DNA of 64,000 nucleotides from positions 24,620 to 88,619 of the forward strand of contig JAZRUV010000008.1 in assembly GCA_045652705.1 (NCBI GenBank). Reading direction: 5' to 3'. Below the pieces are notes generated by a model. It searched no databases. It was given only the letters and a program-made list of their open reading frames with translations, and was not told the origin of the DNA. The position numbers were made by a program, and so were the translations under genes. Shown here in pieces: positions 17,762 to 35,819 of this stretch. How positions within the stretch are numbered: position 1 is the stretch's first letter; every line of letters begins with the position of its first letter. The DNA comes from Clostridia bacterium. Its GTDB lineage: Bacteria > Bacillota > Clostridia > TANB77 > CAG-465.

Positions 17762-18970
17762 ATGGAAATTAGACTTGTTAGCACAAACCCTGGAATCGAT
17801 TTGTACATTGCTCGGGATACTACGCCGAGTAAAGAAGAAAAAATCAAAGAAATTGTTCGTGAACTTTCTATGTTTGCTGGCAAGGTCGGAGGAGAATGTT
17901 ATTCTTCTGACAGTTTAGAACACATTATGAATGAAAGTGAGAAGGAAACCCGGGGAAGAATGAACTTCTGCCTTAATAAGAAACATCACAGTATTTTTGA
18001 ACACCCTAAGCTTACTTTTGAGTTTGTAGGAGTTCCCAAGTTTATTTTCATGATGCTGAACAATCAGTATGTATATACTACTTCGGAAAGAAGTGCGAGA
18101 TATACTAATTTCAGCGAACTTATTGAAACTCGAGAAGAGTCTCAACTTTATGCTAAATGGACGGATAAAATTAGTCGTGCAATCAAGGAGTTCTACGGAG
18201 ATAAGTTCACAGACAAGGAAGTTCAGAAGCTGGCTCAAGAAAATGCTCGTTATATGATTTCTGTATTCGTTCCCAGTTCTATGGTGCACACCATCTCTCT
18301 TAAGGATTTGAACTATACACTATATTTGCTTGAAGAATTTTTGAAGAGCGACTGGGAAAGAAAAACAGCAGTAACTGAACTCTTTATGAGTATTTTGCGT
18401 CCGAAGTTGGAAGAGTTTCTAAAGGAAATGGCGCCTTACAGACTTCCGGGTCTTGAACCTAAGTTTGTAAGAGAGATTGCGATTTTCAAAACACCGCTTA
18501 GCCGAGAAAATCAGGCTGATGCAACGTATCGCTTGAACTATGATATGTCTTTTGCAGCATTTGCACAGGCTCAGCGTCATCGTAGCATTAGATATTCTAT
18601 TGAGCTTAAGAGGCCTACTCCATATATTCCGCCTATTATCAGCGCAGCTGGGCTTGAGACAGAGTGGGTAGCAGATATGATTAGTATTTGCGATAGATTC
18701 CCTCAAGGTCTTATGGTAAATGTTACTGAGACTGGTGAAATTGAGGATTTTGTAGGCAAGTGCTATGAGAGATGTTGTGGCAGAGCGCAACTGGAAATTC
18801 AGGAGAATACGTGTAATTCTTTGGCTTATCTTAGAACTTCTGAAAATGCTGAGGTTGTCAAATATTTAAAAGAGACAACCGGTGATTCTTTTGCAAGATG
18901 TGGTTTTCCTGGCTATCACTGTGTGGAAGTTTGTAAATTTGGCAAGAACCAGCGTGAAAGAAAAATTTAA
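17762..18970 (+). CDS. Divergent ThyX-like (flavin-dependent thymidylate synthase family) protein, 402 aa
   Basis: KKHHSIFEHPKLTFEFVGVPKFIFMMLNNQYVYTTSERSARY aligns to the ThyX core H.(S/T).FEH...TF......F.......RHR..S..E.S.RY, but the RHR is replaced by NNQ. A separate QRHRSIRYS lies about 190 aa later. A C-terminal GRAQLEIQ resembles the ThyX AQ.EIR element. About 1.7 times normal ThyX length. Confidence 0.5.
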   Translation: MEIRLVSTNPGIDLYIARDTTPSKEEKIKEIVRELSMFAGKVGGECYSSDSLEHIMNESEKETRGRMNFCLNKKHHSIFEHPKLTFEFVGVPKFIFMMLNNQYVYTTSERSARYTNFSELIETREESQLYAKWTDKISRAIKEFYGDKFTDKEVQKLAQENARYMISVFVPSSMVHTISLKDLNYTLYLLEEFLKSDWERKTAVTELFMSILRPKLEEFLKEMAPYRLPGLEPKFVREIAIFKTPLSRENQADATYRLNYDMSFAAFAQAQRHRSIRYSIELKRPTPYIPPIISAAGLETEWVADMISICDRFPQGLMVNVTETGEIEDFVGKCYERCCGRAQLEIQENTCNSLAYLRTSENAEVVKYLKETTGDSFARCGFPGYHCVEVCKFGKNQRERKI

Positions 18971-18977
18971 TATAAAA

Positions 18978-19008
18978 TTAGAGGGTGCCTTATTAGGCAT
19001 CCTCTAAT
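18978..19008 (+). terminator. Terminator after the ThyX-like gene
   Basis: ttagagggtgcct / aggcatcctctaa stem (one G.U pair), followed by tttg. Confidence 0.55.
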
Positions 19009-19031
19009 TTGTCAGTTCTGAAAAGAAAAAA

Positions 19032-19060
19032 TTGCAAATGTTTAATATAGATGATATAAT
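19032..19060 (+). promoter_or_regulatory. Promoter of the HipA-like kinase gene
   Basis: TTGCAA (19032-19037), 17 nt, TATAAT (19055-19060), preceded by ATGA. Confidence 0.5.
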
Positions 19061-19077
19061 GTGAAAGAGGTGAAATT

Positions 19078-20139
19078 ATGATTAATTTGACTTTTGATCA
19101 AATAACTAAACATAAGGATGAAGATGGATTTGTGCATTTAGATGAACTCTTTGTAAATTCGGATTCTGAACGTGAAGTAAGAGGAAATATAAATAGAGAT
19201 AAAAGATGGTTTAAGATAGATGATGGAACTGCTATGTTTAAATCTAATACTGAGCAAGCGTTATACGCACACTATTCAGAGTTAATATGTACAGAACTTG
19301 CAAAACAAGCAGGACTGGATGCTGCGGAATATGATATAGCAAAATGTAATGGTCAAACGGGAATAATAACCAAAAATGCTTGTAAACCCGGCGAAGAAAT
19401 GTTAACTATAAATGAATTAATAGGAGACGGGCCAACATACGAAGATTACCCAGATAATACAGATATATATTTTGTTTTCGATTCATTAGAAGAGAAGCTA
19501 CTAGCTGATGGATATAATGAGGAAATGATAGATAGTTGTATATTGCAGCTAAGGAAACAACTTCTTTTTGATTTATATATAATGGAAACAGATAGACATA
19601 CTGAAAATATATCTTTTATTATAGGAAGAGATGCCGAAACGGGAAGACCACATATACGATTGGCTCCTATGTATGATACGGAATCGGCACTGTTGCTTTA
19701 CGACGATGCTGAACACATGAAGAAAGTGTGGACAAGCAGGGCGGTAACACATAGTATAACTAATTTACAGGAACCTAAAATATGTGTAATACCTGAAGGT
19801 GATAGTGACCCGGAACAAAGCGGAATGGATAGAGGCTTGTTTGAGTTTCTTCAAGCTCAAGTTGGCACAGCATACGATACTCCTAGTGAAGAAATATGGA
19901 AATCTACATTAGACTTTTTAGTTGAAGATGAGAGAACGTATGAATTTTCTGAGAATGTTTTAAATGGGTTAGATATATCTAAGGCTATTGAAAATGTAGA
20001 AAGAAATAAAAAGTGTACAATACCTGAAGAAGTAAAGCAAATGGCAAGAGCTTGTTTTGGCGTAAGACAAACAGAAATTGCGTTTGAATTAGGTTTGGAT
20101 TTAAAAGAACAAAACATAGCAGAAAAAGAGTTGACATAA
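19078..20139 (+). CDS. HipA-C-terminal-like Ser/Thr kinase (HipT-like), 353 aa
   Basis: LYIMETDRHTENISFII...RLAPMYDTESAL matches the HipA catalytic motif (D.H..N.SF...LAP.YD). Upstream, WFKIDDGTAMFKSN...YSELICTELAKQAGL resembles the ATP-binding lobe. It lacks the HipA N-terminal subdomain. Confidence 0.65.
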   Translation: MINLTFDQITKHKDEDGFVHLDELFVNSDSEREVRGNINRDKRWFKIDDGTAMFKSNTEQALYAHYSELICTELAKQAGLDAAEYDIAKCNGQTGIITKNACKPGEEMLTINELIGDGPTYEDYPDNTDIYFVFDSLEEKLLADGYNEEMIDSCILQLRKQLLFDLYIMETDRHTENISFIIGRDAETGRPHIRLAPMYDTESALLLYDDAEHMKKVWTSRAVTHSITNLQEPKICVIPEGDSDPEQSGMDRGLFEFLQAQVGTAYDTPSEEIWKSTLDFLVEDERTYEFSENVLNGLDISKAIENVERNKKCTIPEEVKQMARACFGVRQTEIAFELGLDLKEQNIAEKELT

Positions 20140-20159
20140 ATCTAAAGTTGTGTTATAAT
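20131..20159 (+). promoter_or_regulatory. Promoter of the HipS-like small gene
   Basis: TTGACA (20131-20136), 17 nt, TATAAT (20154-20159). The -35 overlaps the end of the kinase CDS. Confidence 0.5.
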
Positions 20160-20212
20160 GTTAGTGCGTAAGCATAAAAACTTTCCACTAACTATGTGAA
20201 GGGGTGATAACA

Positions 20213-20497
20213 ATGATTAAGTACAATGTGTTTTACAAGGAAAATCGTATTGGCAAGCTGTACATCAATGAAGATGGTCAGTACAAGTATGTTGCAGATG
20301 AGGCGGCTATTAAGGAAGTTGAGGAAAACGAAAACGTATGCATCTATGCAGACGCAAGAAACAGCCGTGACTGGGGTGAACCCATCGCCTTCTTTGACAG
20401 CCGTATTGAAAACTGCAAGAGATTTGGTGAGACGGATACTGTAAAGTATCCTAATAGTGACTACTATTTCATCAAAGATAACCACCACAGAGAATAA
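20213..20497 (+). CDS. HipS-like / HipA N-terminal-subdomain-like small protein (94 aa)
   Basis: MIKYNVFYKENRIGKLYINEDGQYKYVAD...PIAFFDSRIEN resembles the HipA N-terminus (V....n...vG.L......g...F.Y ... FF.NLLP). I place the start at the ATG at 20213 (GAAGGGG RBS) rather than the track GTG at 20204. Confidence 0.45.
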   Translation: MIKYNVFYKENRIGKLYINEDGQYKYVADEAAIKEVEENENVCIYADARNSRDWGEPIAFFDSRIENCKRFGETDTVKYPNSDYYFIKDNHHRE

Positions 20498-20500
20498 ATT

Positions 20501-20529
20501 AAGCGAGTATAAAAATACTCGCTTTTTTC
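20501..20529 (+). terminator. Rho-independent terminator
   Basis: aagcgagta / tactcgctt stem with loop taaaaa, followed by tttttt. Confidence 0.8.
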
Positions 20530-20897: not shown

Positions 20898-21106
20898 ATC
20901 TGTGTTGATTTGCGTTGAAGTGGTAGATGGCTATGCATAGACATAGGGAACTTCCATGGAGCATGTCTGATTTGAAATCGGGCGGCAAGTATTGAATTTG
21001 TATTTGCCAAATGTTAATTTGGCTTTATATTATGTCACAAATTTGAAACACACGGGGTAGTGTAAAACTTGCAAGTCCTTGAAATTATAGTAAAGGAGTG
21101 AAAAAT

Positions 21107-31492: not shown

Positions 31493-31693
31493 CACTCAAG
31501 TGTGAGTAAGTATAATATATACAAAAATATAATAAAAAAGGTTGTTCGAGGTTTATACTTTGGGCATCTTTTTTTGTCGAAAATCATCTGTTTTTGCAAG
31601 TTTTATGTAATCTATTTACTTTTCTTCCTTACTGTGATATAATATATAAAGTTGATTTTATGCTCTAAAATAAATATTATAGGAGGAACAAGA

Positions 31694-32038
31694 ATGTTAG
31701 ACACTAAAGTTAAAGCAAGAGATGAGGGTGAGAATAACAAATCAATGCTTCGAGCTGTAGGGGTAGCAACATGTATTCGGCCCGCTGCAAATGTTTCCGG
31801 TATTCGGAAAGCAATGAACGGGTTGGCTGTTGTAGCATGCGGTATGCAGTATGGCGTTAACGCTGGTGAACGTATTGTGCTAGCTCCACAGTTCGAATCA
31901 GTTATTCTTTTGGAAAACGGTTGGATGGTGGCGTCCAGATATGGTATTTATAATATATACGACCGGGAGGGAAACATCTATAAAGGCCTTTCATTTCTTA
32001 AGGAGGAAAATGCAATTAAGTTTGCTAAAACTCTTTAA
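31694..32038 (+). CDS. Hypothetical protein (114 aa), GC-richer orphan inside the ribosomal locus
   Basis: ATG at 31694 follows an AGGAGG RBS; the track start at 31652 has none. Own TGTGATATAAT -10 element (31633-31643) and a strong terminator. The tail ENGWMVASRYGIYNIYDREGNIY is faintly WG/KWG-repeat-like. Confidence 0.55.
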   Translation: MLDTKVKARDEGENNKSMLRAVGVATCIRPAANVSGIRKAMNGLAVVACGMQYGVNAGERIVLAPQFESVILLENGWMVASRYGIYNIYDREGNIYKGLSFLKEENAIKFAKTL

Positions 32039-32040
32039 AA

Positions 32041-32075
32041 ATATGATGGTGAGAATTCACCATCATATTTTTTTC
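32041..32075 (+). terminator. Rho-independent terminator
   Basis: Perfect 12-bp stem atatgatggtga / tcaccatcatat with loop gaat, followed by ttttttt. Confidence 0.85.
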
Positions 32076-32199
32076 CACAACTTCACACATTTAAATTGTA
32101 ATTGGTACAAAATTATATCGTATAATGTAGGTGTAGTAAGCAGTTACTACATTCATACACAAATGAATACATTTTCCCCTTAAGAGAGCAGCTGCTCTC

Positions 32200-32715
32200 T
32201 TAAATTTTGTTTAGATACATAGTTATCAAATAGTTATATTTTATAGCATGTTTCATTTCATCGGTCATAATATATAAAATTTTGTTATACAGTTCTTTGT
32301 TTGGCATATATGTTAAAATTTCTCTATATTTTTCTACAGCTTTTAATTCTCCCATAAAAGCCTTTTTAATACCATCTATATATGTTATCTTTGGATAATT
32401 TGTAGTTTCTGGCAAATTTGGTAAAACTACACCAGTAAGTTCTGTAAATACCTCCCTAAGTATTCTATTATGTATTTTTTCATCATCTCTTATGTTTGTT
32501 ATAATTTCTTTTGCTTCTTCTGTTGGTGCCATATTAATTAAGACTTCGTACATAGCTGCATCTTCTGCTTCGTCTGAAATAGAGTTCTTTACCATAGTAA
32601 CTGCAGTATTTAAATTGTATTGAGTACTTTTGTTTGTAAAATCTAATATCCAAGGTAGATTTTGCCTTGTTATATAATAATCGTCATAATTTGAATAATA
32701 GTTAAAGTAATCCAT
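32200..32715 (-). CDS. Ferritin-like / rubrerythrin-family di-iron four-helix-bundle protein
   Basis: Paired motifs DEAEDAAMY...DDEKIHNR and GELKAVEKY...TDEMKHAIKY (E...ExxH twice). Low GC like the backbone. Antisense to the ribosomal operon. Confidence 0.6.
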   Translation of the reverse strand: MDYFNYYSNYDDYYITRQNLPWILDFTNKSTQYNLNTAVTMVKNSISDEAEDAAMYEVLINMAPTEEAKEIITNIRDDEKIHNRILREVFTELTGVVLPNLPETTNYPKITYIDGIKKAFMGELKAVEKYREILTYMPNKELYNKILYIMTDEMKHAIKYNYLITMYLNKI

Positions 32716-34556: not shown

Positions 34557-35819
34557 ATGCAAAACAAAAAGGCGGTATCATTAGTGGTACTAGTAATAAC
34601 AATAATAGTAATGATAATACTAGCAGGAACAATTATTCTATCAATAAACAACAGTGGAATAATAGAAAAAGCACAAAATGCAGTAGATGAAACAAATCTA
34701 CAAGAAGTGCAAACGTTAGCATCATTAAAGTGGGCAGAAGCATTCGTGGATGGTAATATAACACAAGAACAATTAGAAGAGGAAGTATTAAAAAGATTAA
34801 ATGAGGAAAATTTAGATTTAACACCATATGAAATAACAGTAACAGAAGATGGAGTAACAGTTGCTTTAAAAGGAAGTACAAAAGCATTTTGGGTACAAGA
34901 AGGACTAACAGTAACAAATGGGACAAATGTATTAACAATAGGAGATACAATAGCATATGATGAAACAAATGGAGGAAGCATAACAGGACTAACAGATGTA
35001 GAGTGGGCGGTATTAGGTGCAAATGATAAAGGCGAACTATTAATAATGTCAACAAGTAATGTAGTATCCTCATATAGATTAGGCTATGAGTCAACAATCA
35101 CAGACAGTGCAGCACAATTAGAAGAAAACCAAAATGATTGGTTAACTGGACCACAACAATTAGACAAACTTTGCGCGCCATATGGAAAAGGAGAAGGAGC
35201 AACAAGTGCAAGAAGCATAAGAGTAGAAGATATAAATAAAGTGACAGGATATGACCCGGAAACGGCGGGATTTGGAGAAGGCGAACTATCTGAATATGGA
35301 AACGAAGTAACATATTCATATAATGGGACAACAAATCCAGCATATTCAGGAAGTAATGGAGTGGCAGGAACATTAACTGATACGCACAATAATTTCTATT
35401 ATTATGACGGAGAAAAATTTGTAACAATAAGTGACTTAACGACAGGAACAAGTGGAACAACATTTGCAACGTTAAAGTCAATTAGTTATTCCTACTATCC
35501 AACGACTCTAACAAACAGTTCAGCAGGAGAGTTAAAAGGGATAGGCAAAGATACAAAAGCATATATAATGTTATTTAGAAATAGTGAAAACACATCAAAC
35601 GTGAACTATTGGCTTGCCTCTCCTTGTGTTTATACGGCCTTTTTCAATGTTATGTTCAGCATGAGATATCTGTATGACGGTCATGTCAGTGGGCATAGAT
35701 TGTGGGATTCGGATGGGTACGCCCTCTACGACTTAGATTCTCATGGCGTGCGTGCGGTAGTTTCTTTGAGCTCAGATATCCAGCTTGCAGGAGCGTCTGA
35801 TACAGGATGGAGTTTCTAG
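34557..35819 (+). CDS. Pilin-like-N-terminus surface protein (420 aa), compositionally mosaic
   Basis: N-terminus MQNKKAVSLVVLVITIIVMIILAGTIILSINNSGIIEKAQNA is a short polar leader, a ~22-aa hydrophobic helix, then an N.G..I..AQ motif like the 183-aa protein at 56598. The middle is T/G/S/N-rich. The C-terminal YWLASP...GVRAVVSL resembles a module I know from Firmicute surface proteins. G+C jumps near 35.59 kb. Confidence 0.6.
   Translation: MQNKKAVSLVVLVITIIVMIILAGTIILSINNSGIIEKAQNAVDETNLQEVQTLASLKWAEAFVDGNITQEQLEEEVLKRLNEENLDLTPYEITVTEDGVTVALKGSTKAFWVQEGLTVTNGTNVLTIGDTIAYDETNGGSITGLTDVEWAVLGANDKGELLIMSTSNVVSSYRLGYESTITDSAAQLEENQNDWLTGPQQLDKLCAPYGKGEGATSARSIRVEDINKVTGYDPETAGFGEGELSEYGNEVTYSYNGTTNPAYSGSNGVAGTLTDTHNNFYYYDGEKFVTISDLTTGTSGTTFATLKSISYSYYPTTLTNSSAGELKGIGKDTKAYIMLFRNSENTSNVNYWLASPCVYTAFFNVMFSMRYLYDGHVSGHRLWDSDGYALYDLDSHGVRAVVSLSSDIQLAGASDTGWSF

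Follow-up and report, generated by a model that had tools for sequence, protein, structure and literature searches.

Hip kinases are model persistence and toxin systems. Here we describe a two-gene Hip locus in a 64,000-nt stretch, the window, of contig JAZRUV010000008.1 (assembly GCA_045652705.1) from a Clostridia bacterium; all positions refer to this window unless another locus is named. The genome measures 1.28 Mb, is 98.6% complete and carries a single HipA_C gene. This gene encodes a predicted kinase of 353 amino acids (aa) and, together with a downstream gene for a 94-aa protein, makes up a compact plus-strand unit located between a ThyX-like gene and the S10 ribosomal operon leader (Table 1). 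We read the locus as a two-gene module of the toxin-antitoxin (TA) type with the layout named hipJS, and assign to this reading a probability of roughly 0.6.

The open reading frame (ORF) coordinates, the motifs and the internal promoter given in an earlier note on this sequence, which had proposed a HipT-like kinase followed by a HipS-like protein, were all correct. We place the start of the small ORF at the ATG at 20213, which has the ribosome-binding site (RBS) GAAGGGG 8 nt upstream and from which all homologues begin with MIKY; the program-made ORF list puts it at the GTG at 20204 instead. As the earlier note had also held, there is no helix-turn-helix (HTH) or HipB gene near the pair according to profile searches, the neighbors being tmk, the ThyX-like gene and the S10-Clostridia leader, and neither is a HipR, HIRAN or resolvase partner present at the locus.

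Table 1. Positions of the elements of the kinase-small gene cassette and of the adjoining leader in the window.
Feature	Position	Strand	Description
Promoter P1 of the kinase gene	19032..19060	+	TTGCAA-17-TGaTATAAT; 10/12 consensus positions plus TG extension
HipA_C-family Ser/Thr kinase, 353 aa	19078..20139	+	Lacks N-subdomain-1; predicted toxin
Promoter P2 of the small gene	20131..20159	+	TTGACA-17-TGtTATAAT; 12/12 consensus positions plus TG extension
Predicted 5' untranslated region of the small gene, about 46 nt	20166..20212	+	Deduced from the position of P2; holds the RBS GAAGGGG
HipS-like 94-aa acidic protein	20213..20497	+	Predicted kinase inhibitor/antitoxin
Intrinsic terminator ending the cassette	20501..20524 plus T-run (to 20531)	+	10-bp stem, 4-nt loop
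Extent of the presence/absence polymorphism	19008..20489	.	blastn against relative G073, which lacks the cassette
S10-Clostridia leader	20907-20988		Rfam, 40 bits

The kinase

The 353-aa protein matches the Pfam profile HipA_C (PF07804) over residues 50-211 with 37 bits, above the cut-off of 30.5, and the same domain was found in all 50 kinase homologues. Its motifs TDRHTENISF and LAPMYD occupy residues 171-180 and 195-200, respectively. When it was aligned by hhalign with clade I HipA sequences taken from Table S1 of PMC8262856 (E 4e-9), K55 fell on the lysine of HILKP, D172, H174 and N177 on TDAHAKN, and D200 on LAPLYD. As K55 stands opposite position 185 of the aligned HipA, the kinase is short of about 130 residues found at the N-terminus of HipA, and its Gly-rich loop (E33-x-R35-G36-x3-R40-x-K42-x-W44) begins as early as residue 33. 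Residues E33, G36, K42, W44, E68, D172, H174, N177 and D200 are invariant in 49 homologues, and K55 is kept in 47 of them. Judging from these alignments, the protein is probably an active core kinase of the short type that lacks N-subdomain-1; the HipA-family core without this subdomain that the earlier note had described is thereby confirmed.

The AlphaFold (AF2) model built from 49 homologues reached a mean predicted local distance difference test score (pLDDT) of 87.5. The best solved structure in a Foldseek search with this model was CtkA of Helicobacter pylori, with E 7e-9 and a template modeling (TM) score of 0.70 on the target, followed by HipA of E. coli and Shewanella and then by HipT of E. 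coli and Legionella. By hhalign, the kinase aligned with HipI encoded on a Nostoc plasmid with E 2e-12, and the alignment runs through the Gly-rich loop, where REVRGNINRDKRWF stands opposite KEMMG--SKYKFWF of HipI. The kinase is closer to HipI and CtkA, that is, to the clade XI type, than to HipT, so that of the label HipT-like the membership in the HipA family holds, but not HipT as the nearest type.

The small protein

The small protein has an isoelectric point (pI) of 5.1, the second pI of the pair being 4.5, and profile searches found no DNA-binding domain. Its stand-alone homologues, of 60-130 aa, comprise 25 close and about 75 distant sequences. Residues W53, F59, F60 and R63 of the protein are invariant. 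When the AF2 model of the protein (pLDDT 84) was compared by Foldseek with 350,542 chains of the PDB, the top 19 matches were all the HipA N-terminus or HipS, and stem from four proteins: HipA of E. coli and of Shewanella, and HipS of E. coli and of Legionella. The E-values of these matches were 0.2-1, the full-length TM-scores to HipS were 0.47-0.52, and the best-scoring matches span 28 residues.

A narrow profile of 26 sequences gave no significant hhalign match to HipA N-subdomain-1 (E 0.13, 27 columns); the comparison became informative only after the profile was widened. A search of 1.84 billion representative proteins led to a 75-member profile, which aligned colinearly with HipA N-subdomain-1 over 68 columns (P 0.0036) and also matched the HipS-like N-domain of cyanobacterial HipN (E 2.3e-4). 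Both comparisons align the same two motifs in the same order, an IGxL...Y.Y hairpin and PIPFFxxRI, the latter opposite FF/LLP. Giant repeat proteins that came up in the 1.84-billion search match the hairpin only (positions 12-45) and were treated as spurious. At the HMMER level, nothing significant was found in Pfam, NCBIfam, PADLOC, PHROGs or PDB sequences, either with the single sequence or with the 75-member profile; the N-terminal profile Couple_hipA appears as a weak Pfam match for two of the 75 family members. The resemblance to the missing HipA subdomain that the earlier note had seen in the 94-aa protein therefore stands at the remote level of the fold and profile-profile comparisons, but not at that of ordinary profile searches.

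It could be argued that the small protein is no homologue of HipS but an unrelated partner of the kinase, be it a substrate, an adaptor or a sensor, and that the likeness is limited to a common beta-hairpin. The empty HMMER searches, the short span of the best Foldseek matches together with the modest full-length TM-scores, and the hairpin repeats picked up by the profile search in giant repeat proteins would all be expected if this were so. A shared hairpin would hardly account, however, for four independent HipA and HipS proteins filling the top 19 places among the PDB chains, nor for two independent profile comparisons that recover the same two motifs colinearly, and the partner of the nearest plasmid-borne relative of the kinase is itself a HipS-like::HIRAN protein. 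We regard an unrelated partner as quite unlikely, and the models and profiles point to a small protein that is probably HipS-like.

A 205-aa metagenomic protein, P0099, begins with about 60 residues that resemble the N-terminus of the kinase including its Gly-rich loop (EASREIRGNSERFKNW), continues with a piece resembling the kinase C-terminus and ends in a complete small-protein domain. The protein looks like a deletion fusion, perhaps a decayed cassette whose kinase core has been lost.

Pairing of the two genes among relatives

Metagenome contigs, species-representative genomes and the taxonomic family of the window yielded 39 distinct kinases. All the relatives are metagenome-assembled genomes of uncultured gut or rumen Clostridia, and no database source has a name for either protein. 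A homologous HipS-like gene lies directly downstream on the same strand of every one of the 39 kinases, a pairing that is far beyond chance. The partner is of the type found in the window (A4) in 22 cases and of a second type (M105) in 10, and both are present in the remaining 7, in the order kinase-M105-small. The M105 family, of about 105 aa, overlaps or abuts the stop codon of the kinase; it is paralogous to A4 (hhalign E 1e-6) and has no Pfam match. Some relatives contain several paralogous copies of the pair per genome.

Genes for M105 were located in L029 (6970-7284), L032 (6887-7234 and 9902-10225), L033 (7015-7326), L035 and L056-L067. The kinase-M105 and kinase-M105-small architectures are at times found in tandem arrays that end with a thioredoxin gene. 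L058 and L060 are examples of loci with the order kinase-M105-small.

Small genes lacking an upstream kinase amount to five of 27, namely L050 2535-2807 (-), L051 5399-5656 (+), L052 3092-3364, L053 3385-3678 and L054 111-377; their frames are open and they keep their own promoters. Two of these orphans, L050 and L051, lie between ypeB and pcrA, where L026, L031 and L034 have the order ypeB-kinase-small-DUF6873-pcrA. In genome G022 the small gene is present and no kinase of the family could be detected, and decayed kinases stand beside open small genes in G016 (five stops) and G042 (two stops). The kinase is never alone and its partner sometimes is, as a toxin/antitoxin relation predicts: in type II TA modules the toxin is never found without its antitoxin and orphan antitoxins are allowed, which corresponds to the 39/39 kinases and the 5/27 orphans counted here.

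These counts also bear on another explanation, in which the pair is a split regulatory kinase and not a toxin, the small protein being an obligatory lid supplied in trans for folding, substrate choice or activity, and the pair serving the ribosomal gene cluster as a resident regulator that tunes translation or growth. The homologous subdomain is indeed an integral part of the active kinase in HipA, and the translationally coupled 105-aa paralogue of many relatives is what one would expect of a stoichiometric subunit. Nevertheless, the persistence of small genes without a kinase, and never of the reverse, suits an inhibitor better than an activator.

Promoters and expression

P2 is the only perfect promoter match in the region, and its -35 hexamer TTGACA overlaps the last codons and the TAA stop of the kinase gene, as the earlier note had pointed out; the kinase gene also has a promoter of its own, P1. 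An equivalent of P2 (TTGACA/TTGAAA-16/17-TGnTATAAT/TATACT) is present in the kinase-small spacer of 18/18 loci, down to 30% kinase identity, often as the same GTTGACATAA word. The kinase promoters of the relatives have a good extended -10 and a poor -35, for which reason P1 is predicted to be weaker than P2. No terminator was found between the two genes, so that transcripts from P1 should also cover the small gene, which would then be served by two promoters. A perfect, separate promoter and the excess of small protein expected from it are left unexplained if that protein is a mere subunit of the kinase.

Just upstream of the start of the small gene, at 20185-20206, lies the word CACTAA(C/T)TATGTGAAAGG, which is shared by L001 and L002 and in part by the map/infA loci described below. 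A 7-bp inverted repeat, GTTAGTG...CACTAAC, begins at the predicted transcription start in the window and has this word as its 3' arm. The word may be a translational control element.

Genomic slots and evolution of the cassette

Of the 13 genomes of the genus, nine have the pair and the other four lack both genes. Within the genus, the pair is found at one or the other of two places in the ribosomal super-operon: slot A, which lies upstream of the S10 leader (the window, L001, L002, L045 and L046), and slot B, between map and infA (L005, L012-L017 except L015, whose flanks were not covered, L020-L025 and L044). The kinases of slots A and B form sister clades with 99/99 support, and thus one relocation followed by vertical descent is enough to account for the two positions. 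A close relative, G073, whose S10 and ThyX-like proteins are 99% and 88% identical to those of the window, has an empty site: by blastn, its thyX-S10 spacer aligns with the window as far as position 19007 and then from 20490 onward, the two aligned parts being separated by 25 unrelated bases. As G073 still has the terminator of the small gene, a deletion of the cassette is indicated. Divergence of the cassette far outpaces that of its flanks: the window and L002 share 51% identity in the kinase and 51% in the small protein, compared with 86-96% in the flanking proteins.

Outside the genus the neighborhood changes. A sister genus has a related pair about 4.4 kb downstream of frr, and more distant members adjoin der, mutS, genes of nicotinamide adenine dinucleotide (NAD) metabolism or a gene for a tetratricopeptide repeat (TPR) protein, or sit between ypeB and pcrA. 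With distant members lying by non-ribosomal genes, the association with translation genes, though striking inside the genus, does not hold in general, and a general functional link to ribosomal genes, which we considered, is weakened by the members near the NAD genes, the TPR gene and ypeB-pcrA.

The regulatory, non-toxic kinase with an activating lid introduced above can be weighed further with these data. Its conserved slots by translation genes (upstream of S10, in map/infA and upstream of der), the vertical inheritance seen in the 99/99 sister clades and the retention of the pair in genomes of only 1.1-1.4 Mb are consistent with a resident regulator. On the other hand, the pair is dispensable, being absent from four of the 13 genomes and cleanly deleted in G073, its distant members lie by unrelated genes, and it evolves much faster than its neighbors. 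This explanation is the main rival of a TA-type module. It fits the core-gene location and the coupled M105, but not the orphans, the losses or the strong promoter; we consider it unlikely.

A further possibility concerns the role of the same module rather than a different mechanism: it could act as an abortive-infection system, in which the shut-off of host expression by a phage depletes the small protein and frees the kinase. The kinase matches the PADLOC candidate-defence model PDC-M03A (E 6e-22) and a PHROG family of unknown function. The fast diversification, patchy presence and paralogue arrays of the cassette agree with such a role, and the strong constitutive promoter of the inhibitor would turn it into a sensor of shut-off. 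However, the flanks (tmk, thyX and the S10 operon) are no defence island, and a partner of the PDC-M03B type is not present, so that the locus, with the A (kinase) model matched and the partner model unmatched, falls outside the definition of PDC-M03. We regard an anti-phage role as possible but not likely.

A more elaborate proposal would see in the locus not a selfish TA cassette but a translation brake resident in the lineage, made of a kinase and up to two paralogous lids, of which the coupled one of about 105 aa would be the stoichiometric lid and the promoter-driven one of about 90 aa a competing, inhibitory lid that also acts in trans on paralogous kinases. The super-operon slots would then be adaptive, making kinase release in these reduced gut Clostridia depend on the state of ribosome synthesis, and the orphan small genes would be explained by the action of the 90-aa lid in trans. 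We consider this proposal quite unlikely.

Other accessory genes were seen around the same slots. In the window, the map/infA slot holds a 420-aa ORF without Pfam or PADLOC match (34557-35819, plus strand), which is 31% identical to a 441-aa ORF that L001 has between the pair and the S10 operon; L022 has a homologue between map and the kinase. As this family occurs in both slots, the same accessory genes move between the same two positions of the super-operon. The secY/adk spacer (31652-32715) contains a 128-aa unknown ORF and a minus-strand gene for a 170-aa rubrerythrin/ferritin-like protein, and that of the relatives 506-aa and 167-aa ORFs of unknown function. Between tmk and the cassette/S10 region lies the 402-aa ThyX-like gene (17762-18970), found also in G073 and L046, whose Thy1 domain is confined to the N-terminal part and whose score is below the TIGR thyX cut-off. 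Other species of the genus carry thyA-folA in its place (compared in L002 6566-7911, L045 and L042-L044), which looks like a thymidylate-synthase replacement polymorphism.

Comparison with known Hip systems

The arrangement of the locus is that of hipJS, in which a short kinase is followed by a putative antitoxin consisting of HipS only, with no DNA-binding partner; hipJS belongs to the Hip tree's clade XI, was found in 2 of 1,239 modules, and its function is predicted only (Gerdes, Baerentsen & Brodersen 2021, PMC8262856). The earlier note had called the bipartite arrangement unusual. Its description, with the kinase first, the small gene second and no HipB, is accurate, but since hipJS had already been described in genome surveys, a bipartite layout without HipB and with the kinase first does not amount to a new type of system. 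The likeness to hipJS, which rests on the published layout, extends to the lack of N-subdomain-1 in a short kinase, the order of the genes, a probable HipS-only partner and the absence of an HTH/HipB or HIRAN component. For a place in the HipJ subclade of clade XI, the only support is that HipI matches the kinase better (E 2e-12) than clade I HipA does (E 4e-9). There are differences as well: HipJ has 279-321 aa, whereas the kinase described here has 353 and its family 322-386; the partner family is too diverged for the Pfam model Couple_hipA; a conserved consensus promoter of its own serves the partner; and the relatives include a second, translationally coupled HipS-like paralogue. The chromosomal setting also differs.

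The closest annotated relative of the kinase belongs to hipIN of plasmid pn5 of Nostoc sp. UHCC 0926 (tblastn, 28% identity, E 1e-7), composed of the kinase HipI and HipN, a HipS-like::HIRAN protein. The order of the genes is the same and the N-domain of HipN gave the best profile match of the small protein, but the HIRAN domain is absent here, and the genes, which overlap in Nostoc, are separated by a promoter-bearing spacer. HipBST of E. coli O127:H6 and Legionella pneumophila is likewise a split HipA with a core kinase and a separate lid-like protein of about 100 aa, HipS, which is the antitoxin and blocks the region of the Gly-rich loop (PMC10627512); its HipS and HipT chains were among our Foldseek matches. 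It differs in its order, hipB-hipS-hipT with the HTH protein HipB, as opposed to kinase then small protein without HipB; in addition, the kinase described here has no conserved Ser in the Gly-rich loop and in structure resembles CtkA and HipA more closely than HipT. CtkA (JHP0940; PDB 3AKJ, 3AKK and 3AKL) shares with it the HipA fold without N-subdomain-1, although the sequence identity between the two is only 14-15%.

Proposed mechanism and its weighing

In a TA-type module of the hipJS layout, the 353-aa kinase core, devoid of its N-terminal "lid", would, in analogy to HipA, HipT and HipH, phosphorylate a component of the translation apparatus and thereby stop growth. The 94-aa protein would be a free-standing, much diverged homologue of the lid, which would bind beside the Gly-rich loop and keep the kinase inactive as suggested by the HipS-HipT structures, in which HipS neutralises HipT with Trp65 wedged beside that loop (PMC10627512); hipJS and hipIN have been predicted to act in the same manner (PMC8262856). 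The small gene would be transcribed both by read-through from P1 and from P2, and the inhibitor would be in excess because P2 is perfect and conserved in 18/18 loci, P1 is weaker and no terminator separates the genes. Release of the kinase would require that the small protein is no longer made or is removed, for example upon a phage- or stress-induced shut-off of transcription or translation. A DNA-binding partner would not be involved, both proteins being acidic and no HTH being encoded. The cassette itself is an accessory element, fast-evolving, vertically inherited and repeatedly lost, and resides in intergenic slots of the ribosomal super-operon in gut Clostridia with small genomes.

A toxin/antitoxin-type pair is the best-supported reading, with an intact catalytic set, obligate linkage, the asymmetry of the orphans, promoters that favor the small protein, dispensability and fast divergence. 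Several points weigh against it. Toxicity, binding of the pair and the target are all inferred by analogy. The locus lacks an autoregulatory DNA-binding component, unlike classical type II TA modules. There is no conserved Ser or Thr in or beside the Gly-rich loop among the 49 kinase homologues, so that a control by autophosphorylation of the HipA/HipT type is not expected; HipG is reported to be alike in this respect (Gerdes et al., PMC8262856). The HipS homology of the small protein falls below the significance of ordinary sequence methods, with Foldseek E-values of only 0.2-1, and none of the 75 members of its family matches the PADLOC PDC-M03 models. The conserved core-gene slots of a 1.28-Mb genome are less typical for mobile TA or defence cargo, and the GC content of the cassette equals that of its flanks, with no anomaly. 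Searches of phage records and viral contigs turned up no relatives, and those on plasmids come down to the distant hipIN of Nostoc; an origin from a mobile element was rejected on the grounds of these searches and the normal GC content.

Significance of the locus

The locus is real, conserved and unannotated, and represents a Clostridial variant of a Hip module that is known but unproven. To our knowledge, only HipBA and HipBST have been studied experimentally, and HipB-less two-gene layouts of clade XI are still predictions. What is new here is the conservation of P2 in 18/18 loci, the asymmetry of 39/39 paired kinases versus 5/27 orphan small genes, the second, coupled partner of about 105 aa, and the two super-operon slots with a clean deletion and fast divergence. 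The locus belongs to a sizeable, wholly unannotated Clostridial branch, whose partner family is missed by annotation and defence-finder pipelines because it is invisible to Pfam. Its members form a natural series, comprising a kinase with a promoter-driven small protein, a kinase with the coupled 105-aa paralogue, a kinase with both and the small protein alone, which offers a ready test of a free HipS-like protein as a lid or an inhibitor without the complication of HipB. The presence of the cassette inside the ribosomal cluster of genomes of 1.1-1.4 Mb also bears on where streamlined gut bacteria keep their accessory or defence genes.

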